IMG/VR virus record: IMGVR_UViG_3300027917_000021
Coordinates: 64,001-128,000 of that record
Reading direction: 5' to 3' (one strand)
Length of the DNA stretch: 64,000 bases
Source of the DNA: a virus
Numbering within the stretch: the first letter of the stretch is position 1; each line of letters opens with the position of its first letter. The position numbers and the translations under genes were made by a program. The notes under the pieces were generated by a model, which saw only the letters and a program-made list of their open reading frames with translations, made no database searches and was not told the origin of the DNA. Below are positions 4,879 through 43,339 of the stretch, in pieces.

Positions 4879-6419
4879 TTAAAATAGCCCCTAGCCAGTT
4901 TACAGAGCGATTTCTCTATCTAAATGGTAAACCGTTTTCATTTTCGAATTATGAATTCATGAAACCGATTTATGATTTAGATGCATCAGAAATTGTAATG
5001 AAATTTTCTCGTCAAACATCAAAGTCTACTACCATGGCGAATATTATGATGTCTAAAGCGGCCATGACACCGCATTTTAGACAATTGTATGTATCACCTT
5101 CAGTAGACCAAACAAAAATATTTTCTGGTGATCGTGTAGCACCGGTAATTGAATCAAGCCCTATTGTTAAAAAGCATTATGTGAATTCGAATGTATCACA
5201 GAATGTGTTTACAAAACGATTCCTTAACGGAAGTGTGCTATATCTCAGATATGCACAACAATCAGCTGACCGCCTCCGTGGTTTGTCAACCGATATAAAT
5301 TACTACGACGAAGCACAGGATTTGAATATGGAGATCATTCCTGTTGTTAATCAGTCTATGTCCAGGTCTTTATATAAAAAGACAGTTTATTCCGGAACTC
5401 CAAAAAGAACAAAAGGTACGTTAGCTGAACTTTGGTACCGCTCCACAATGTATGAATGGTTCTCTAAATGTGAGCATTGTGGTAAGTGGAATTACTTAGA
5501 TCAGAAAAACATCGGGTTGCATGGTGTCATATGCCGATACTGTGGGGAGCATCTTGACACTTCTAAAGGTCAATGGGTTAGTACTGGAGACAGAGATTCT
5601 AGAACCAAGGGTTTTAGGGTTAACCTATTGATGTTTGAGGCAGCACCCTGGGTTGATTGGCAAACTGACGTTATAGAGTACCGTAAGACTTGTCCAAGTG
5701 ATGCTATTTTTTATAATGAAGTTTTAGGTCTAGAATATGACGACGGTGTACAGCCAATCACCCTTGCTGATTTAAGAAGGTGTGCAACTGGCGGTCCGAT
5801 GCTGGAAGATCCAACCCAATTAGACTTATCAAGAGTACATACAACAATGGGGTTAGATTATGGGCCGGTAAACAGTAATAAATCTAAAACAGTTGCCTGT
5901 GTTATACAAAGAGATTCCGATAAAATAAAAGTTAAATATTTAAAAAGATATAAAGGCCATGAGGCTGATTATTCTTTTATTCATGGTGATATTCCACAGA
6001 TTTTTGCCAAATGGCATGCGGTGGTTATAGGGGCTGATGCTGGATTAGGAGATGGCCCTAATTCTGAAATACGGGCGCGTATTGGTATGCCTGAGCGATT
6101 GATTGCATTTAGGCATTCAGGATCACAAAGAGCAAAAGCAAAGTGGAATCCAAGTAGCAGTGAGTATACGCTTAATCGCAATATGGTCATGACAGACCTG
6201 TTCCGCAAGATTAAAAACAGACAAGTAGAGTTCCCTCGTTGGGAAGACTTTGAGCCTTTTGCCGACGATTTTATGAATATTGTAATCGAATATGATGATC
6301 GTTTAGGTACATATAAATATGTAAATACTGGCCCAGACGATGCACTACATTCAATTTTGTTTGGTGAGTTGGCACTTCAATTATTAACCGCGCGTGACGC
6401 AATGTTGATGGACTATTAA
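4866..6419 (+). CDS. terL: Terminase large subunit (GpA-like ATPase plus RNase H-like nuclease)
   Basis: KFSRQTSKST (Walker A variant), YYDEAQD (Walker B), SGTP coupling motif, CEHC/CRYC zinc ribbon, MGLDYG and PDDALHS nuclease motifs. Confidence 0.9.
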   Translation: MAKIVKIAPSQFTERFLYLNGKPFSFSNYEFMKPIYDLDASEIVMKFSRQTSKSTTMANIMMSKAAMTPHFRQLYVSPSVDQTKIFSGDRVAPVIESSPIVKKHYVNSNVSQNVFTKRFLNGSVLYLRYAQQSADRLRGLSTDINYYDEAQDLNMEIIPVVNQSMSRSLYKKTVYSGTPKRTKGTLAELWYRSTMYEWFSKCEHCGKWNYLDQKNIGLHGVICRYCGEHLDTSKGQWVSTGDRDSRTKGFRVNLLMFEAAPWVDWQTDVIEYRKTCPSDAIFYNEVLGLEYDDGVQPITLADLRRCATGGPMLEDPTQLDLSRVHTTMGLDYGPVNSNKSKTVACVIQRDSDKIKVKYLKRYKGHEADYSFIHGDIPQIFAKWHAVVIGADAGLGDGPNSEIRARIGMPERLIAFRHSGSQRAKAKWNPSSSEYTLNRNMVMTDLFRKIKNRQVEFPRWEDFEPFADDFMNIVIEYDDRLGTYKYVNTGPDDALHSILFGELALQLLTARDAMLMDY

Positions 6420-31672: not shown

Positions 31673-32904
31673 AAGAATACATTCTGAATAATTTTCAATA
31701 TCTTATAGAAAATAATCCGGATGGTATTGTAATACATTCAGATGGTATCATAAGATATGCAAATAAAAGTATTCTTACTATATTTGGTGCTTCATCGGCT
31801 GATGAAATTATAGGTAGAAATATTTTTGATTTCATACAACCGGATTATCATGAAGCTGCAAAAATACGTATTGCCAAAGCACTAAACAATATGGAACCCG
31901 CTCCACTAGCAGAATATGAAGCAATAAAATTAGATGGAGCAAAAATATATATAGAAATACTTTCAATACCTTTTATGAGAGGAGAAGCTAAGGCATTACA
32001 AGTATTAGTTAAAGATATTTCTGAAAGAAAAAGACAATATAAAGCTTTACAATACTCTGAAGAAAAATTTCGTGCTTTATTTCAAACAGCGCCTGACGCA
32101 ATTTTATTGTCAAATAAAGAAACAAATATTATTTCTTTAAATTCTGCTTTGGAAGATATGTTTGGTTATACTTACGATGAATTAATTGGTAAATCATGGA
32201 TGTTGCTTGTTGCCAAAAGGTTGCGAAATGATCGAATGGAGCGTATAGAATATATAAGAGAAAAACTAAAAGCTGGTGAATTTCTTAAAGAAGAAGTATA
32301 TGGAACAACTAAATTTGGCAAAGACATCCCTGTAGAAATAAAAGTTGGGCGATGGCAAATAAATGGTGAACCTTTTTATACTACCATTATAAGAGACATA
32401 TCGGAAAGAAGAGAGTTTGAAGCCAAATTAAAGCAATTAGCTGATATTGACCATCTAACTGGAATATATAATCGTCGTGCCGGTTTAATACTTACAGAAC
32501 AATTGTTAAAAACTTCTAGAAGAACTAACCAACCTATTACTTTATGTTATTTGGATCTCGATAATTTTAAATATGTAAACGATTCACATGGGCATGTTGC
32601 AGGAGATAAAGTTTTAAATGCTGTAGCGAGTTTAATAAAAGATAATCTTCGTGAATCAGACATATTTTTTAGGCTTGGTGGTGATGAATTTATAATTGTC
32701 TGGAACAATACATTTCTAGAACAGGGACATCAACAATGGTCCAGAATATTAAATAAATTTAATGAGTGGAATAAAGAAAATTATTCTACTCGATTGGGGA
32801 TAAGTGCTGGATTTGTATGTCCAGATCTTAAGAAAGACATAAACATTGATCGTATTATAGATATTGCAGATAAGGAAATGTATAAATCCAAAGGAAACAA
32901 ATAA
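31663..32904 (+). CDS. PAS-PAS-GGDEF diguanylate cyclase
   Basis: Two PAS repeats ending KDISERK and RDISERR; DHLTGIYNRR, DLDNFKYVNDSHGHVAGD, RESD I-site, RLGGDEF. Confidence 0.95.
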   Translation: MALKEYILNNFQYLIENNPDGIVIHSDGIIRYANKSILTIFGASSADEIIGRNIFDFIQPDYHEAAKIRIAKALNNMEPAPLAEYEAIKLDGAKIYIEILSIPFMRGEAKALQVLVKDISERKRQYKALQYSEEKFRALFQTAPDAILLSNKETNIISLNSALEDMFGYTYDELIGKSWMLLVAKRLRNDRMERIEYIREKLKAGEFLKEEVYGTTKFGKDIPVEIKVGRWQINGEPFYTTIIRDISERREFEAKLKQLADIDHLTGIYNRRAGLILTEQLLKTSRRTNQPITLCYLDLDNFKYVNDSHGHVAGDKVLNAVASLIKDNLRESDIFFRLGGDEFIIVWNNTFLEQGHQQWSRILNKFNEWNKENYSTRLGISAGFVCPDLKKDINIDRIIDIADKEMYKSKGNK

Positions 32905-34250
32905 TGGAGTATGCACCAGGAATACCTGATAAAAGCTCTAAATCAGTAATACCTTCTTCTCAAGACAAAATATGGTCATATGTAATTCAGTATCATATGG
33001 CAGATGTTGCTGGGCCACACTATGATTTTAGAATATCTGATGGGGCAGTAGCATACTCTTGGGCAACGAGAGCAGGGTTGCCGAGCTTAGGAGATAAGGT
33101 ACTGTGGATACGACAGCCAGACCATACTCCAGAATATATGTCTTTTTCAGGAGAAATTGCCGATGGATATGGAAAAGGATCAGTTAAAGTCATTGATTCA
33201 GGCCAGATCCATGTAATTAGTGCAACCCCGGAAAAAATATCATTTAATTTATATAAAGGTGCAGGAACGCAAAAATTTACTCTTGTTTATACAGGAGGAA
33301 ATAATTGGTTATGCATGAACACAACGCCAACCAAAGAAACACGCCCAGAAATACCAGAGAAAAAAATACAAGCAAGATCTATTGATCCATCTAAAATATC
33401 TTTTACAAATTCTAACCAAATTTTAACTGAAAAGATAGATGGGGCTGCCAGTTTATTTGTATTAAGAAAAGGACGACCAGTAGAAGTTTTTAGTTATAGG
33501 AAAAGCAAGCGAGGTCCGGAACTTATAAATCGGACATATAAATATCCTGATTTATATAATACCATGGTGCCTGAAGAATTAGATAAAACTACTTTATGGG
33601 GAGAGGCCTATGTTAGTGATGCTGAAGGACGAACACTTCCACACAGAGAAGGTACTGGCCTGCTCAATGCTAATGTGTGGAGAGCAAGAGATGAGGTAGC
33701 TAAAAGACACCTTAAATTCGACAATGTAATATTTAATATTGATAAATACAAAGGTGTGGATTACTCTAAAAAACCATATGGTGAAAAAATAGAGCTATTG
33801 AAAGAGATCCAAAGTAAGCTGCCTCAACTCAAGCTCCCTATTATGGCTGAAACTCCTTTAGAAAAAAGAAGATTATATGATGCTATAAAATCCGGGAAAC
33901 ACCCTCACACAACAGAAGGGTGGGTTATTTGGGATTTGAATTCAGACCGCCCAATTAAATCTAAATTAAAATTGGATACAGAATTATATGTACAGGGATA
34001 TGAAGAAGGCAAAGGAAGATTAGAAGGAAAACTTGGAAAAATTTTGGCAACTCCCGATCCACAAGGAAAGGGCCCTATTACGAGAGTAGGTGGAGGATTT
34101 ACAGATTTTGAGCGAGAACAAATCTGGAATAACCGGTTAACATATTTGGGAAAACCGATTACTATAGAATATCAAGAAAAATTACCGTCTGGTAAATATA
34201 GAATGCCCATTTTTAAAGTATTTCGTACTGCAGAGTTTTGGCCTACCTAA
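32904..34250 (+). CDS. LigD phosphoesterase fused to an ATP-dependent DNA ligase
   Basis: YVIQYH...HYDFRI...YSWA...DH...YGKG; EKIDG adenylation motif, EGWVI, VGGGFTD, RMPIF. Confidence 0.85.
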   Translation: MEYAPGIPDKSSKSVIPSSQDKIWSYVIQYHMADVAGPHYDFRISDGAVAYSWATRAGLPSLGDKVLWIRQPDHTPEYMSFSGEIADGYGKGSVKVIDSGQIHVISATPEKISFNLYKGAGTQKFTLVYTGGNNWLCMNTTPTKETRPEIPEKKIQARSIDPSKISFTNSNQILTEKIDGAASLFVLRKGRPVEVFSYRKSKRGPELINRTYKYPDLYNTMVPEELDKTTLWGEAYVSDAEGRTLPHREGTGLLNANVWRARDEVAKRHLKFDNVIFNIDKYKGVDYSKKPYGEKIELLKEIQSKLPQLKLPIMAETPLEKRRLYDAIKSGKHPHTTEGWVIWDLNSDRPIKSKLKLDTELYVQGYEEGKGRLEGKLGKILATPDPQGKGPITRVGGGFTDFEREQIWNNRLTYLGKPITIEYQEKLPSGKYRMPIFKVFRTAEFWPT

Positions 34251-37017: not shown

Positions 37018-38628
37018 ATGGCTTACGTAAAACCAGGCGTCGAAGTTACTCAAACCCAAGTACGCGTTTCTCCAAGTTTGATATCTCCAGATTTAGGAAC
37101 AGTTTTAGTTGGAAAGGCATTCTTTGTTGAAGAAGTAGGAGACTACTCTTATACTGATGTATATAGTGGTGTCCAAATTGATGTAGATTATGCCGGTCTT
37201 CCATCTGGAGCTGAAGTACATACAGCAAGTGTGTATGTTGATCTTATTGGTGGTACAGGAGCATCAGCTGGAACGAGAGTTCATTTAGAATCTGGAACAG
37301 ATTTTACACCTGGAGCAACTTCTGTACAAATTAACGCAGGTTTGGGTTCAACATATCCGGAAGTTACTGGGCTAGAAAATGGCGCAGCAATTGAAATTGG
37401 ATATCGTGCACTTCGTACCGATTTAGATCCATTTTTAACCATGTCAACATTAACTGACATAGAAGAAAAAGTTGGATCCACAATATCTTATAATCCGCTG
37501 GGCGTGGCACTTCATAAAGCTATGTTAAATACTGCTGGATACGTCTTTGCGTCTCCTACACAGGAAGACACACCAGTGGAAACATCAAATGAATTTACAT
37601 CTGCTGATGTAGCATTTGACACGTTGAAGACCAAAGAAATTTATGCAATGGTTCCTTTAACAACAACTGATGCCACAATAAGTGCATTTAAAACACATGC
37701 AATAACATATTCTGAACCGGAAGAAAAAAGAGAAAGAATGGTTGTTGCAGCTCCAAGTATTCCTTGGAAAGACACTGGCGGCTCACCTACATCAGCTGAC
37801 CTGGCAGATACAGCAGTGACTGCCGGTGCAATTAAAGAAGCTGCGTACAATCAACAAGAACGTAGACTTGTCTACGTATTTCCAGATACAATGTTTGTAA
37901 CTGAAACACGACATGTGTCCACGTTGACGGATACTTATCGTGATGCAGTTCAGGGAGTAACCGGAATACCTTTTTATTTAGGGGAAAATAAAACTGTTAC
38001 TGTTAGTGGCACAAAATATTCTTATAAAAAAGGCGATGTTTTGACATCGACAGTGTTATCAAATATAGCTACAGACAATACTTTTCTTATAGTGAATTCT
38101 CCGGTTCCTGGATATATAGGTGCAGCTGCAATTGGTGGAATGATTTCTGGATATCCTCCTGAAACACCATTCACTAATTTAGCTATTACCGGTGTTAGTC
38201 GTTTGAAATATTCGATGGATAAATTTACTGAATCTGACCTTAACACAATGGCCGAAGGTGGTAATTATCTATTAATTCAAACATCTGAAACAGCACCAAT
38301 TTACTGTAGACATCAACTTACAACAGATATGACTTCTGTTGAAAGACGTGAATTAAGCATTCTAAAGACATTAGACTTTGTTGCAAAATTCATGCGTAAC
38401 GGATTATCCGGATATATTGGACGTTATAATATTAGTCCACAGTTTATGAAGCTGCTTACCATGACTATACAAGCACAAATTCTGTATCTTGTTAAAAATG
38501 GCCATGTCAACGACATTAAAATTCTTAGTATTGCACAGGCCGAAGAAGCTGCTGATACAATAGAAGTAAGTCTAAATGTATTGGTCAAATATCCTGTCAA
38601 TTACATTAAGATAGATCTACAGTTCTAA
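37018..38628 (+). CDS. Contractile tail sheath protein
   Basis: MAYVKPGV start; PFTN, RHQLTTD, RELSI..LDFV, YPVNYI. Confidence 0.85.
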   Translation: MAYVKPGVEVTQTQVRVSPSLISPDLGTVLVGKAFFVEEVGDYSYTDVYSGVQIDVDYAGLPSGAEVHTASVYVDLIGGTGASAGTRVHLESGTDFTPGATSVQINAGLGSTYPEVTGLENGAAIEIGYRALRTDLDPFLTMSTLTDIEEKVGSTISYNPLGVALHKAMLNTAGYVFASPTQEDTPVETSNEFTSADVAFDTLKTKEIYAMVPLTTTDATISAFKTHAITYSEPEEKRERMVVAAPSIPWKDTGGSPTSADLADTAVTAGAIKEAAYNQQERRLVYVFPDTMFVTETRHVSTLTDTYRDAVQGVTGIPFYLGENKTVTVSGTKYSYKKGDVLTSTVLSNIATDNTFLIVNSPVPGYIGAAAIGGMISGYPPETPFTNLAITGVSRLKYSMDKFTESDLNTMAEGGNYLLIQTSETAPIYCRHQLTTDMTSVERRELSILKTLDFVAKFMRNGLSGYIGRYNISPQFMKLLTMTIQAQILYLVKNGHVNDIKILSIAQAEEAADTIEVSLNVLVKYPVNYIKIDLQF

Positions 38629-38639
38629 GGAGGAATTAG

Positions 38640-39269
38640 ATGGCCAAGACAACATACCAAGATTGGGAATTTAAAGAAGCACACGTAGAGCCAGATGTAT
38701 TAAATAATAATGAAAATTTTGTATCATCTGAATCCATAGTTATTTGTGCTGGTCCTTCCTACGTGGACGAAGGTACAGATTTAGCCGGTCAATTGTATCC
38801 TATAGGTATTCTTGAGAGTGCTGCAGTAGTGCAGAATAAACAAATTCAACAATTGTTTGAAATTGGTTCAAGAAAACCATACATGATTCCGGGACGTACA
38901 AGAGTACAAGTAGGACTTAGTCGAGTAATATTTAATGGTGATTCACTATTAGCTGCTATGTACTATGGAAAGTATAGTGGAACCTTGCCAGAACAAGATG
39001 CAAGTGAAGATTCTCCTGGACATGCTAGCAATTATCCTGCGACAGGTGAAGGACACTTCTATTTAAATCTGGCTTCTAGTTTCTTTAATAAGCCATTTGG
39101 ATTAGCTCTAATAGTACACGATAGTGAGGATGAACAAACAGCAATGATATTACTTCAAAACTGCATGGTTCAATCTCATCAAATGAATGTTGGTGCAAAT
39201 CAGACGATAGTAATGGAAAATGTTAATATTATCGCAGATAGTATCCAGCCAATTATTGTTAGTGCTTAA
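38640..39269 (+). CDS. Tail tube protein
   Basis: Follows the sheath; QQLFEIGS..YMIPG, LQNC, IVMENV. Confidence 0.8.
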   Translation: MAKTTYQDWEFKEAHVEPDVLNNNENFVSSESIVICAGPSYVDEGTDLAGQLYPIGILESAAVVQNKQIQQLFEIGSRKPYMIPGRTRVQVGLSRVIFNGDSLLAAMYYGKYSGTLPEQDASEDSPGHASNYPATGEGHFYLNLASSFFNKPFGLALIVHDSEDEQTAMILLQNCMVQSHQMNVGANQTIVMENVNIIADSIQPIIVSA

Positions 39270-39280
39270 AAATTAATGTA

Positions 39281-39315
39281 AAAATATAGGGAGGAGCATT
39301 TCCTCCCTTTATTTT
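39281..39315. terminator. Terminator where the two transcription arms converge
   Basis: agggagga-gcatt-tcctccct with A/T-rich flanks. Confidence 0.75.
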
Positions 39316-39524
39316 GCATTTCCACTAATCGCTATTTCAGTCTCATCCAGGACTTTTTCTGTTTCTTGAAATATTTTTTCTATTTCTTCAAGACGCTTGT
39401 TAACCTTTTCTAGTCGTATTGTAAGAAGTTCCGAAATTGGATTTCCATCATCCTTTAAAGTTTTAATTCTTGATTCGAGATATTTTTTTTCCATTAGGCA
39501 CATCTCTTTATTCGGACAAACCAT
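39309..39524 (-). CDS. Small hypothetical protein
   Basis: 71 aa; AAGGAG RBS. Confidence 0.65.
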   Translation of the reverse strand: MVCPNKEMCLMEKKYLESRIKTLKDDGNPISELLTIRLEKVNKRLEEIEKIFQETEKVLDETEIAISGNAK

Positions 39525-39704
39525 AATTTTCTCCTTTTTTATTTATATTTTTCTTATACCAGCTTAAGATAAAAAAAAGAGCTGTACTTTACATCCCCTT
39601 GTCTTCGGCAGTTAATTTTAATTTGAAGATGCTTATTTTTTCTAATTTGTTAGTCGTTGCAACTAACGAAGTATTCTGTTTTATCTACAGCTCACATCGC
39701 AAGG

Positions 39705-40290
39705 CGGCACAGCTGGGAATATTTCCCAGCTGGTGCTTGCTATTTATCCGCCGGACTAGAGCGGTTACAAATAAACTCGGAGATTTATCTCCGAGTTTTT
39801 TGGAATGCGATTGCTCGGCGGATAAAATGAGATGTTCTGGCAAAACGAAACGTCATGCTCATCTCTTCTAGAAATATTTAACTAATACTCCTAGAAGAAA
39901 CGAGCGGGGGACGCCACCCCGATGCATCTCATTTCTTCTGCTTCGACGACGATCGCGTCTCTCTCGGGCTCCAGCCGCCAGAAACCTGGATCCGGATCCG
40001 AGCGTGCGCGCGACGGCCGCCTTGCATGGTCCCACTGGCCGGCGTACCCCAGGCGCCCTAGGCGCCCGCGGTCCTGAAGGGGGGTACCTTCACGTGGCAG
40101 CCCGTCGACTGGAATCAGGGCACAGTACTCTCGCGCATGCACTGCAGCAGGCCTTAGGCGCTGCAGCTGGCCGCACGTTGTCTCTGGTCGCCTGGTCGGG
40201 GACGGTTTTGTTGTAACGGAGACAGGGACGTCAGAGTTACAACAAATAGAGCCTTAAACGAAAGACGAGACGTCTCTCTAGGCTCAGGCA
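39705..40290. other. Non-coding, GC-rich, hairpin- and palindrome-dense island
   Basis: Several perfect 10-12 bp stems; 22 six-base palindromes in 39921-40170. Confidence 0.75.
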
Positions 40291-40298
40291 GGAGCAAG

Positions 40299-40493
40299 TT
40301 ACTCCTTTGCGTCAATTGTTTCTTTCGAAACAGGCGTTTCTGCTTTTGCCGCCTGTCTTTTTAATTTACGTTGTTTGGCCTTTTCCATCTTCATTTCATA
40401 GCGAAATTTTTTTTGTTCTTTATTTTTTTCTCGACGATGTTCCAATTTGTATGCTTCGCACTTCTTTTTATTCCTGCCTTGTTTTTTGCCCAT
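40299..40493 (-). CDS. Small Lys/Arg-rich protein
   Basis: 64 aa with AAGG(T) RBS. Confidence 0.6.
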   Translation of the reverse strand: MGKKQGRNKKKCEAYKLEHRREKNKEQKKFRYEMKMEKAKQRKLKRQAAKAETPVSKETIDAKE

Positions 40494-40515
40494 AACACCT
40501 TTCCTAAAAATTAAA

Positions 40516-40739
40516 GAGGTCCGCTGAGGATTCTAACCTCTTGCACAAGATTAATTTTTCATCACTTATCCCCTGTACCGCGATGGATTTACACCAATGC
40601 ACTCGGTGTAGGTGTCTGCGAGGCCTTGTTCGCTCCGAACGAAAAGGATGTGCTTTTTCAAGTAAGAGCTCTTATACCATCATTACGGAAGCTCCAAGGA
40701 AGTACTACGTCACGCGCCGGAAATACTTCCGCGGACCTC
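40516..40739 (-). ncRNA. Putative structured ncRNA with tRNA-like termini
   Basis: 9-bp terminal stem GAGGTCCGC/GCGGACCTC, T-arm-like GAGG-TTAGAAT-CCTC, several internal stems. Confidence 0.55.
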
Positions 40740-40925
40740 AAATTTTCTTAATTATGTTTGTTTGTCTTTAGAGGGACGAATAATAAATTCGCATCTCGCC
40801 GCTGCCGTATAACCTGCCTCTTTTTCACGGAAAAGGCTCCTAGCTTCAGGGCTTATGCCGACACGCGTTTTCAATTTGTTAAACTACCCTCCGCAGGTCA
40901 AGTATACCGATAATTATATCGGTAT

Positions 40926-41591
40926 TTATTCTTCATCTTTTTTATTAATAATGATGTCTGGTGTATTCGGATCATAAAAATTATTAAGCTGTGTAATTCC
41001 AGACCGCCTTGCGTCAAAATATTTTGCAAATCCTTCTGCAGTTGCCGCGTAGGCTTCAGCGCGTCCGGCATTAGAACTTGTATATGAAAATGTGTTATTT
41101 GTAACAAAGTTTAATTCTTGTTTATCTTCTAGTCCTTCAATTCCTTGAAATACAAATGTCCAATTTCCCTTTTCTTCCCTTTCCAAAATCATGTTATTGA
41201 TTTCGTCTCGAGAAAATATAGATGAGCTGTTTTCCCATCCGTCTGTAAATATATAAACTAATGCGGCATCATCATCTTTAATAACACCATCAATTAATTT
41301 TATTGCCTGACCAATGCCATCATACATAGGAATAGATCCAGATGGAACGTAGTTTTGATGATCGAGGTGTTTTGCTACCCTAGCATCCTCATTAAAATAA
41401 ACTACTTCGCCCTCTCTATTACGAAATAATACTAGAGATACTTTTACTTTTCCAGCGAGTCTTGCCTTTTCAGCTCGCATTAAGTCAATTATTTCATTTA
41501 CTCCGGTGATTGTTGTTTCGATGTCGGCGCTCATGGAGCCACTTCCATCCAAAACTAAAGCGATATAAGTATCGCCTGCCACTTTTGCCAT
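40926..41591 (-). CDS. von Willebrand factor A (vWA) domain protein
   Basis: LVLDGSGSM MIDAS motif, PMYDGIG, IFTDGWENSS, WTFVFQG. Confidence 0.85.
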   Translation of the reverse strand: MAKVAGDTYIALVLDGSGSMSADIETTITGVNEIIDLMRAEKARLAGKVKVSLVLFRNREGEVVYFNEDARVAKHLDHQNYVPSGSIPMYDGIGQAIKLIDGVIKDDDAALVYIFTDGWENSSSIFSRDEINNMILEREEKGNWTFVFQGIEGLEDKQELNFVTNNTFSYTSSNAGRAEAYAATAEGFAKYFDARRSGITQLNNFYDPNTPDIIINKKDEE

Positions 41592-42241: not shown

Positions 42242-43009
42242 TTATACTGATAAACCACCATGTAAAATATTACCTGTTATTATTTTACCAAGTTTTTCGT
42301 CTTCAACGATCTTGGCATTATTGGCTCTTTGGCGAGCATCTTTAACCGCCAATTCCCATTTATCATGACGAGAAAGAATTTCTGATTTCATTTTAGGGGT
42401 AATGGCTCCAGATACTTTTGTCTCATTCCAAGTGCCGACTACCATATCTTCATGTACTAATTCGGTTTGTGCCGGGTGTTCTTTTGTTGCCTCATATTTT
42501 ACTAGAACTTTCGGAACTTTTTTGGATTTGAATGTTTGGAGTGGATCGGTTTTGTAATAATTATTGTCCTTGTCCCATTTCCAATTAAACTTTGGGTCTA
42601 AGGTTGGAATTGACATCAACAATGATCTTAATTGTTTTAATTTGTTTTCCAAGCTTAGTAAAGACGTTGCATGTAAATTTTCTGCAATAGTATATCCTTC
42701 ATAAACCAAATTAGCAGTTGCCACTGCATTGGTTTCTTCTTTCACTATCGAATGATTGATAGCATCTGACAGAGCATCAAAATAATATGATATTTTTTCT
42801 TGCACAGTTGTTACCAAAGGCTCTGTCTCAGGAGGAAATTGTTCTCCACCCTCTTCTTTGGGCTGGTATACACGAAATCTGCCAGCGAAATGATGCTGTT
42901 TTTTGCCTAGCGTATTTTCTGCCTCTTTAGCCAAATTTCTTTCTTTTTCTTTAACATTTGGCTCTGCAGCAAGGTGCTGGTGTAGCTGAGTTTTACTTTC
43001 TTCTGCCAT
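42242..43009 (-). CDS. Uncharacterised helical protein (LHQxLA ... HPAQ ... VG.W ... SGA ... ARQRAN pattern)
   Basis: 255-aa ORF with AAGGA RBS, flanked by AGACT repeats. Confidence 0.75.
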   Translation of the reverse strand: MAEESKTQLHQHLAAEPNVKEKERNLAKEAENTLGKKQHHFAGRFRVYQPKEEGGEQFPPETEPLVTTVQEKISYYFDALSDAINHSIVKEETNAVATANLVYEGYTIAENLHATSLLSLENKLKQLRSLLMSIPTLDPKFNWKWDKDNNYYKTDPLQTFKSKKVPKVLVKYEATKEHPAQTELVHEDMVVGTWNETKVSGAITPKMKSEILSRHDKWELAVKDARQRANNAKIVEDEKLGKIITGNILHGGLSV

Positions 43010-43148
43010 AGAAATATTCCTTTAGTTAATTAGTCTAAGTCTAAATATTAAAAAGAAAAATGACAGGGCTCTCCGACGGGCCCAACATTTTTCTTAATTT
43101 GTATTTTCTCCAGGATTACTGCGGTTTGGGTTCTTTTTCCCGGACTTG

Positions 43149-43302
43149 CCTGTGTGCCTAGGGGGCCGATGACCGAGTGCGTACTCAGCGAGCTGGCCGC
43201 AGCAAGGGGCCTACAGCAAGGAAGGTGCCCTTCTTTGCTGGAGGGACCGAAGACGCGGCTTGCGAGGAGGACGTGCCGGTCGAAGGCTATGTAGCACACA
43301 GG
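43149..43302. ncRNA. Putative structured RNA/DNA element
   Basis: GC-rich intergenic region closed by cctgtgtgc/gcacacagg; 12-bp inner hairpin 43214-43240. Confidence 0.45.
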
Positions 43303-43339
43303 AATATCAATAATGTTGCGAAACACAACAAATAGATAT

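Follow-up and report, generated by a model that had tools for sequence, protein, structure and literature searches.

We describe a short non-coding island, at 39921-40170 of a 64,000-nt stretch of phage DNA, that is packed with six-base palindromes of many different kinds. The stretch (the window, whose coordinates are used throughout) comprises bases 64001-128000 of IMG/VR record IMGVR_UViG_3300027917_000021, a genome record of 155,895 nt with a GC content of 35.5% that we call G000. Our results make it quite likely that the island is the fast-evolving core of a conserved, probably transcribed, minus-strand non-coding module lying between the gene for a small basic protein and a 23-bp hairpin, and that selection keeps this core stocked with diverse, perfect, GC-rich 6-bp palindromes while leaving the words and their positions free. 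That selection maintains the packing, for a purpose not previously described, even as the individual letters change fast, is well supported by comparison among related phages. The island is thus a locus at which selection opposes restriction-site avoidance, holding diverse hexamer palindromes at fourfold excess despite their turnover.

The island has a GC content of 0.664 and contains 22 six-base palindromes of 19 kinds. Dinucleotide-preserving shuffles, the null model for palindrome counts in this study, gave a mean of 5.50 for this segment (s.d. 2.25, maximum 15, n = 5,000), corresponding to a z score of 7.3 for count and kinds alike. An initial annotation, made from the letters alone, had listed 22 palindromes of 19 kinds here, with about 66% GC and about five expected, and had proposed a shuffle control; every listed palindrome is present where it was placed, the composition and expectation agree with our measurements, and the enrichment survives dinucleotide preservation. 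The two GACGTC sites that it had noted after the island were found at 40227 and 40269. No other 250-nt segment of the 155,895-nt genome is as dense (22 palindromes against a genome mean of 4.6), and for GC-rich palindromes the gap is wider still, with 20 per 250 nt in the island, a genome mean of 0.84 and 6 in the next-best segment. It is the sole palindrome-dense place in G000, and the closest full relative (G001, 169 kb) and a remoter one (G002, tube protein 43% identical) likewise carry one island each. Five other GC islands and two neighbouring non-coding blocks of the same genome showed no palindrome excess (z -1.1 to 0.9), and neither did a coding-like control of 66% GC (z 1.2). Two parts of the island are referred to below:

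39939-40206, no strand assigned: palindrome-dense, fast-evolving GC-rich core, with 21 six-base palindromes of 18 kinds against 6.0 expected (z 6.4)
39941-40090, no strand assigned: hypervariable sub-block of the core, with an identity of 0.53-0.67 to the closest allele (L017)

Within the core, maximal palindromes of exactly 6 bp number 18 against 4.3 expected.

We then compared alleles of the locus. Searches with the tube protein retrieved seven further alleles from different samples and archives (tube-protein identity to the window: L017 99%, L072 93%, L073 89%, L074 86%, L075 84%, L002 81% and L019 81%), all with the same gene order and with conserved hairpins on both sides of a variable core. 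The homologous cores span 119-291 nt at a GC content of 0.50-0.69, and all are enriched for hexamer palindromes (z 2.6 to 8.6); the L017 core alone holds 25 palindromes of 22 kinds against 5.6 expected. Pooled over the eight-allele set, which includes the window, perfect palindromes number 113 against 34.8 expected (z 14). Between the window and L017, flanking 50-nt segments are mostly 0.94-1.00 identical, and the hypervariable sub-block, at the far lower identity given above, contains 12 palindromes in the window and 13 in L017, of which about half are different words. Palindromes have been replaced rather than lost between these two alleles. Words also move: sister alleles have lost GGTACC (KpnI-type) and GGATCC (BamHI-type) at one position and carry them at another, and L017 carries two insertions relative to the window that both bring new palindromes, one of 9 nt with GGTACC and one of 7 nt giving GCCGGC/CGGCCG. 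The kinds common to both clades number nine, against about eight expected by chance on our own arithmetic, which does not show conservation of specific words; what is conserved is therefore density and not particular words.

Density is retained through 35-45% divergence in at least eight alleles, and in two remoter relatives as well. In L076 (tube protein 58% identical) the same gap holds 20 palindromes against 9.9 expected (z 3.3), including six within 86 nt, and in G002 an island at another genomic place holds 27 palindromes of 24 kinds against 12.8 expected (z 4.0). The initial annotation had named persistence of density in diverged relatives as its own decisive test, and the eight alleles confirm that persistence. 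The L076 gap also contains, after the tube gene, two direct repeats of about 55 nt (L076:5900-6120), followed at 6215-6300 by the cluster of six palindromes.

The polylinker-like look of the island raises the question of whether it is a vector polylinker, a synthetic spike-in or a chimeric assembly, and the contig of one relative, L018, passes from the island into GC-rich coding DNA of foreign appearance. Yet blastn with 11-base words against 72,556 plasmids returned no vector or plasmid match, 50,697 phage records returned none either, the independent Logan assembly of the source marine-sediment sample has the identical sequence with phage flanks on both sides, and seven diverged alleles occur elsewhere in the wild. 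We therefore exclude an artefact, whose chance we put near zero; the initial description of the island as non-coding and natural holds, and the vector screen that it had suggested, run here on plasmid and phage collections, was clean. In L018 (SDBT01123614.1; L018:3265-3659) the contig leaves the island for DNA of 66-68% GC that continues to its end, with a LamG-like open frame on the minus strand of the GC-rich part; either chimeric assembly or capture of foreign DNA within the island accounts for this run-out. Contigs also break inside the island in runs X2 and X3.

The signal is sharply confined to perfect symmetry over six bases. Pooled over the eight alleles, maximal palindromes with 3-base arms number 85 against 25.6 expected, whereas those with 2-base arms are at chance (92 against 99.8), and a palindrome extends beyond 6 bp with a probability of 0.25, compared with 0.26 in shuffles. 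An excess of palindromes with exactly 3-base arms is thus a trait that can be scored from sequence alone. Inverted repeats whose arms are separated by 1-8 bases show no excess in the window, and hexamers that depend on wobble pairing are at chance on the minus (RNA) strand (36 against 37.6); wobble quasi-palindromes on the plus strand are slightly raised (73 against 55.6, z 2.4). Kinds are more varied than random draws in the window (p 0.04), L017 (p 0.006) and G002 (p 0.045), most palindromes occur a single time within the island, and overlaps between neighbours are about what random placement gives by a hand estimate. Of the REBASE word classes in Biopython, exact and degenerate 6-bp palindromes are the only ones to stand out, and interrupted restriction palindromes are mildly raised (44 against 23 over five islands; z 3.8 in G002).

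The core is flanked by hairpins that behave as RNA on the minus strand, listed here in the order of that strand:

40249-40285, minus strand: 5′ hairpin module, with an outer GAGCC/GGCUC stem and an inner GACG-UCU-CGUC hairpin
40207-40246, minus strand: hairpin P2, a 10-11-bp stem with a conserved loop that contains a small inner stem
39905-39921, minus strand: hairpin P3, CGGGG/CCCCG around a conserved GRCGUC loop, terminator-like on this strand
39858-39904, minus strand: hairpin P4, some 23 bp long, at the module's 3′ end

RNAalifold, run on the minus strand of the eight alleles, supports the 5′ hairpin, P2, the P3 region and the 23-bp P4. In the 5′ module the inner pair changes from A-U to U-A between clades, and the outer GAGCC/GGCUC becomes GAACC/GGUUC in L002 and L019. 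The P2 stem is invariant in all eight alleles, with a pair of its inner stem changing from A-U to C-G in two of them, and P4 shows compensatory changes at eight positions across the set together with G-U pairs, kept in seven to eight of the eight alleles, that correspond to A-C mismatches on the plus strand. P3 takes a different stem in each of three lineages (CGGGG/CCCCG, CAGAG/CUCUG and UAGGG/CCCUA) and was recovered in a terminator scan of the minus strand, with the caveat that RNAalifold on eight alleles prefers an overlapping alternative pairing. Fold energy relative to shuffles reaches z -4.6 on the minus strand and -2.1 on the plus strand. Compensatory changes and strand-specific G-U pairs, the marks of a structured RNA, are thus found in P2, P4 and the 5′ hairpin but not in the core. 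The module is most likely part of a minus-strand transcript, and may represent a long 3′ terminus of the messenger RNA (mRNA) for the basic protein, with P3 and P4 forming the end of that message.

The core itself is no more stable than dinucleotide shuffles under RNA or DNA parameters (z +1.6 to -2.3; L019 -3.1 to -3.6), and the palindromes are not set out for contact: a closing stem of at least 4 bp surrounds 24% of them and 22% of other GC-rich 6-mers, and their predicted accessibility equals that of controls (0.295 against 0.295). These two comparisons give no support to kissing-loop dimerization of the type used by the dimerization initiation site (DIS) of HIV, and the self-complementary loops envisaged in the initial annotation do not materialize in the form in which they were proposed. 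A retron-like long-range closing helix, visible with four sequences, vanished with eight, and duplex energies of the 5′ and 3′ segments equalled those of shuffles in eight of eight alleles. Rfam 15 (including ROOL, GOLLD, OLE, Y RNA and transfer-messenger RNA (tmRNA)) gave no match at gathering score in the window and chance-level matches only at E up to 10 in 39500-40950; ARAGORN found no tRNA or tmRNA, and DNA-pattern scans of viral and genome collections for the conserved hairpin returned only the one known relative.

Phage genomes are textbook cases of restriction-site avoidance, and the initial annotation had assumed that phages avoid such sites. This does not hold for the island's kinds in this phage, which occur in 420 copies outside the island against 331-406 expected, which means that the island offers no unique cut site and that the phage does not purge such words in general. 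Avoidance of the classical sort is seen only for WGCGCW, whereas the words of the island are concentrated about fourfold, inherited and unavoided elsewhere. AGCGCT, TGCGCA, AGCGCA and TGCGCT have zero copies in both G000 (155.9 kb) and G001 (169 kb), although the model expectation for AGCGCT and TGCGCA in G000 is 12-21, and about 12-19 for each palindrome over G000 and G001; in G002 each WGCGCW word has 21-28 copies. WGCGCW is probably what the principal restriction system in the hosts of this clade recognizes, and the purged class offers a direct handle on that system. Over the eight alleles the islands display 28 of the 32 GC-rich palindrome kinds, and the four unseen kinds include both purged palindromes, AGCGCT and TGCGCA (chance about 1 in 80), whereas AGCGCT is present in the island of the non-purging G002. 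Both facts suggest that the island samples the words that its genome tolerates. As to a sensor of host methylation state, another proposal of the initial annotation, no gene for a C5 or N6/N4 DNA methyltransferase was found in the record.

Some 28 different words that turn over leave only two conceivable readers, the diversity of restriction–modification (R-M) enzymes or base pairing of the sequence with itself. Our preferred reading, to which we assign a probability of roughly one in three for any physical form, is that the island acts as bait for host R-M enzymes. The palindromes would be recognized by dimeric enzymes whose sites are 6-bp palindromes in double-stranded DNA, which in practice means the varied Type II R-M enzymes of the host population, and the array would serve as a multi-specific bait, as decoy or as sensor, that covers the words still carried by the genome and omits the purged class. 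Its working form would more likely be a multi-copy derivative, a single genomic copy being poor bait, and a candidate route would be copying of the transcript into complementary DNA (cDNA) by the lineage's retron-type reverse transcriptase (RT). We favour this reading because the unit is sharply 6 bp, its symmetry is exclusively perfect and no RNA-structural correlate accompanies it; because the kinds are varied, turn over as in an arms race and complement the purged class; because interrupted restriction palindromes are mildly enriched; and because the lineage encodes a retron-type RT and the phage a LigD-type ligase. If true, it would amount to a broad-spectrum phage answer to variable R-M repertoires. 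A more specific version, in which the module is a dedicated, evolvable 'polylinker' RNA whose core is copied by the phage retron-type RT into many DNAs that show nearly every hexamer palindrome the genome still contains, and so soaks up or reports the restriction enzymes of the current host, is in our judgement unlikely; it would represent a general, sequence-programmable counter-measure to restriction and a first function for a phage-encoded retron, retrons being known as bacterial defence systems and not as phage tools.

Several observations weigh against the bait reading. With about 420 further copies of its words in the genome, a single-copy bait would add little, and the decoy or repairable cut site suggested initially, if taken as a unique one in the genome, fits poorly on that account and because the purged WGCGCW is missing from the island too. 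The GTCTC/GAGAC and GGGAC sites pointed out in the initial annotation do exist, but asymmetric (Type IIS-like) restriction words as a class are not enriched, nor are bipartite ones, common as such systems are. The genome's most frequent palindromes, the AT-rich ones, are almost absent from the island, which is better explained by base-pairing strength than by bait. Most palindromes occur only once, so that a folded single-stranded cDNA would not present duplex words. The link to the RT, finally, is weak: 77 kb separate the RT from the island in G001, and four of five RT loci (G001, L070, L071 and L080) have no island within 8-10 kb, G002 being the only one that does; local alignment of RT-adjacent gaps with the island RNA gave nothing convincing and no shared sequence, a covariance model of the 5′ domain produced weak AT-rich matches (15-20 bits) without P2 at the RT loci of G001, G002, L070 and L071, and neither an a1/a2 closing helix nor a long template hairpin was found.

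The RT lead itself comes from the relatives. The retron-type RT of G001 (L047:1414-2343; E 1e-71 to PADLOC retron RT models) is overlapped by the gene for a 182-aa partner that belongs to no known family. Both are in a 40-kb segment (G001:C1:60000-100000; L047, L068) whose place is exactly between the two ends of the window's record, from which it is lacking. The record itself yielded no RT or RVT_1 match, the neighbours of the island being open reading frames (ORFs) of 64 and 71 aa; as the 40-kb segment is missing, this absence says nothing about the phage, and the 94% completeness estimated for the record is probably too high. An RT orthologue lies 3.1 kb from the only island of G002. RVT_1 was not matched in 12 partial relatives that are 14-56% complete and hence uninformative, and an alignment-based locus search for relatives of the RT returned the two known loci only. 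The link between RT and island is weak, being one of lineage only. RT homologues in L070, L071 and two further contigs share a conserved gene context, in which a multisubunit-type RNA polymerase gene on the other strand is followed by a bpMoxR AAA ATPase, a vWA gene, a gap of 200-430 nt and the RT; an overlapping ORF of 150-197 aa follows the RT in two of the four contigs, and one RT contig has a 5.6-kb stretch without called genes beside the RNA polymerase gene.

The second conceivable reader, base pairing, would have transcripts or their cDNA copies pair through single-copy GC-rich palindromes into multimers, a gel or a condensate, perhaps together with the 64-aa basic protein. We consider this, the main rival of the bait reading, doubtful. 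Palindromicity that is kept regardless of the word would be readable only by base pairing, and the same idea covers the freedom of words to change at constant number, the limitation of the enrichment to GC-rich words of at least 6 bp, as a stability threshold would impose, and the GC-richness of the island within an AT-rich genome. Words used only once would block pairing within a molecule and force it between molecules; the island sits inside a module with covarying minus-strand hairpins, a basic ORF is always adjacent, and HIV-1 DIS, the oskar 3′ untranslated region (3′UTR), ROOL and GOLLD are precedents. The RNA itself argues the other way, in that the palindromes are neither displayed in loops (24% against 22%) nor more accessible than controls (0.295 in both), wobble-tolerant palindromes on the RNA strand are not enriched, longer palindromes gain nothing, some 20 sites per molecule would be far above any known RNA assembly, and Rfam gave no match. 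Were self-pairing nevertheless the explanation, the module would be a natural RNA built on multivalent self-complementary words.

Two further explanations dispense with both readers. A cis-acting DNA element unrelated to restriction could be an array of binding sites, a hotspot for recombination at a module boundary, or a signal for replication or packaging that needs short dyad symmetry. Such an element would suit an island that each genome has once and that in eight alleles and L076 keeps its position, 0.65 kb from the point where the structural and early arms converge, amid mosaic sequence and with only perfect duplex symmetry enriched. We judge it improbable, since about 28 different, turning-over words could not be read by any single protein, the island of G002 is at another genomic place, and the conserved flanks show the behaviour of RNA, their G-U pairs being confined to one strand. 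Least probable among the biological explanations, and with little chance of being right, is that the palindromes are by-products of a local mutation process (template switching, break and repair, or biased gene conversion) in weakly constrained non-coding DNA. Both L017 insertions do bring new palindromes, the plus-strand excess of G-T quasi-palindromes (73 against 55.6, z 2.4) is what strand-biased decay or creation would give, and the phage has an end-joining-type ligase. But template switching and fill-in would generate many lengths and not a sharp 6-bp unit with chance-level extension, the other non-coding blocks and GC islands of the genome show nothing of the kind, and density has been held through 35-45% divergence in at least eight alleles and two remoter relatives. 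Part of the total probability goes to none of the explanations considered here.

Among known systems, the words of the island are of the same class as the sites of Type IIP R-M enzymes (perfect, ungapped, 6 bp and of many kinds), and a synthetic multiple cloning site presents a similarly dense run of different 6-bp restriction words, but the island is natural, divergent among wild phages, free of vector matches and built of sites that are spaced and partly overlapping. Like a retron msr-msd (for example, Retron-Eco1), the module has conserved hairpins around a variable middle, and its relatives encode a retron-type RT with a small partner; unlike one, it lacks an adjacent RT, an a1/a2 helix, a long template hairpin and similarity to RT-adjacent gaps. 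Fungal mitochondrial GC clusters and the PstI palindromes of Neurospora mitochondrial DNA are also GC-rich, restriction-site-rich non-coding islands beside RNA genes in AT-rich genomes, but they are dispersed, multi-copy mobile elements that belong to one repeat family and fold into hairpins, whereas the island is a single-copy locus with many different words; no second copy was found in G000, so that it does not qualify as a dispersed mobile element of the GC-cluster kind or of the kind of repetitive extragenic palindromes (REP) and miniature inverted-repeat transposable elements (MITE). GC-rich palindromes of 6 nt are the dimerization sites of HIV-1 DIS and the oskar 3′UTR. ROOL and GOLLD, large phage-associated RNAs, and OLE are homo-oligomeric ornate RNAs (PMC12286853). 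The island shares GC-rich, self-complementary 6-nt words and a probable non-coding RNA setting with DIS, oskar, ROOL, GOLLD and OLE, which use one or a few words in the hairpin loops of a conserved fold; the island has about 20 words per molecule, outside loops, in a core whose fold is neither conserved nor unusually stable. Our literature search returned no description of such palindrome islands. The island does not pass the tests that define retron non-coding RNAs, kissing-loop RNAs, mobile GC clusters or vector polylinkers. That it is a heritable, selected palindrome array is well supported, and such an array is outside the known kinds of element; the function we suggest for it is a proposal.

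The genes around the module fix its place in the genome. The plus-strand arm ends with the tail sheath gene (37018-38628) and the tube gene (38640-39269), and the minus-strand arm starts beyond a two-way terminator. On the minus strand the order is DUF7873, vWA, a conserved non-coding block, the 64-aa basic ORF, the island and the 71-aa ORF. The initial annotation had put the island near the junction of the two arms, which is right as to closeness, the plus arm ending at 39269, but the island lies about 650 nt inside the minus-strand arm and not at the junction itself. The features are as follows:

32904-34250, plus strand: phage-encoded ligase of the end-joining type, in which a LigD-type 3′-phosphoesterase is fused to a ligase OB domain
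39309-39524, minus strand: 71-aa ORF, past the island on this strand
39777-39806, no strand assigned: two-way terminator-like hairpin downstream of the module; T6 comes after its 9-bp stem on the plus strand, TTTATTT on the minus strand
40299-40493, minus strand: very basic 64-aa ORF, directly upstream of the island on the same strand
40926-41591, minus strand: vWA protein gene, from annotation of the neighbourhood
42242-43009, minus strand: DUF7873 gene, upstream of vWA

The basic ORF is rich in lysine and arginine, measures 64-77 aa in relatives and stands beside the island in every allele checked; it has no Pfam or PDB relative. The ligase, which the initial annotation had recognized as a phosphoesterase-ligase, is encoded upstream of the tail genes, a position conserved in relatives.

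Two other non-coding segments lie nearby. A second GC island (43060-43338, up to 66% GC), between two minus-strand genes, shows no palindrome excess (2 against 4.0 expected) and is presumably a different structured RNA. The conserved non-coding block between the basic ORF and the vWA gene (40494-40925) aligns well with L002, a contig from a rhizosphere metagenome matches 40605-40892 at about 93%, and the block is likely another RNA gene.

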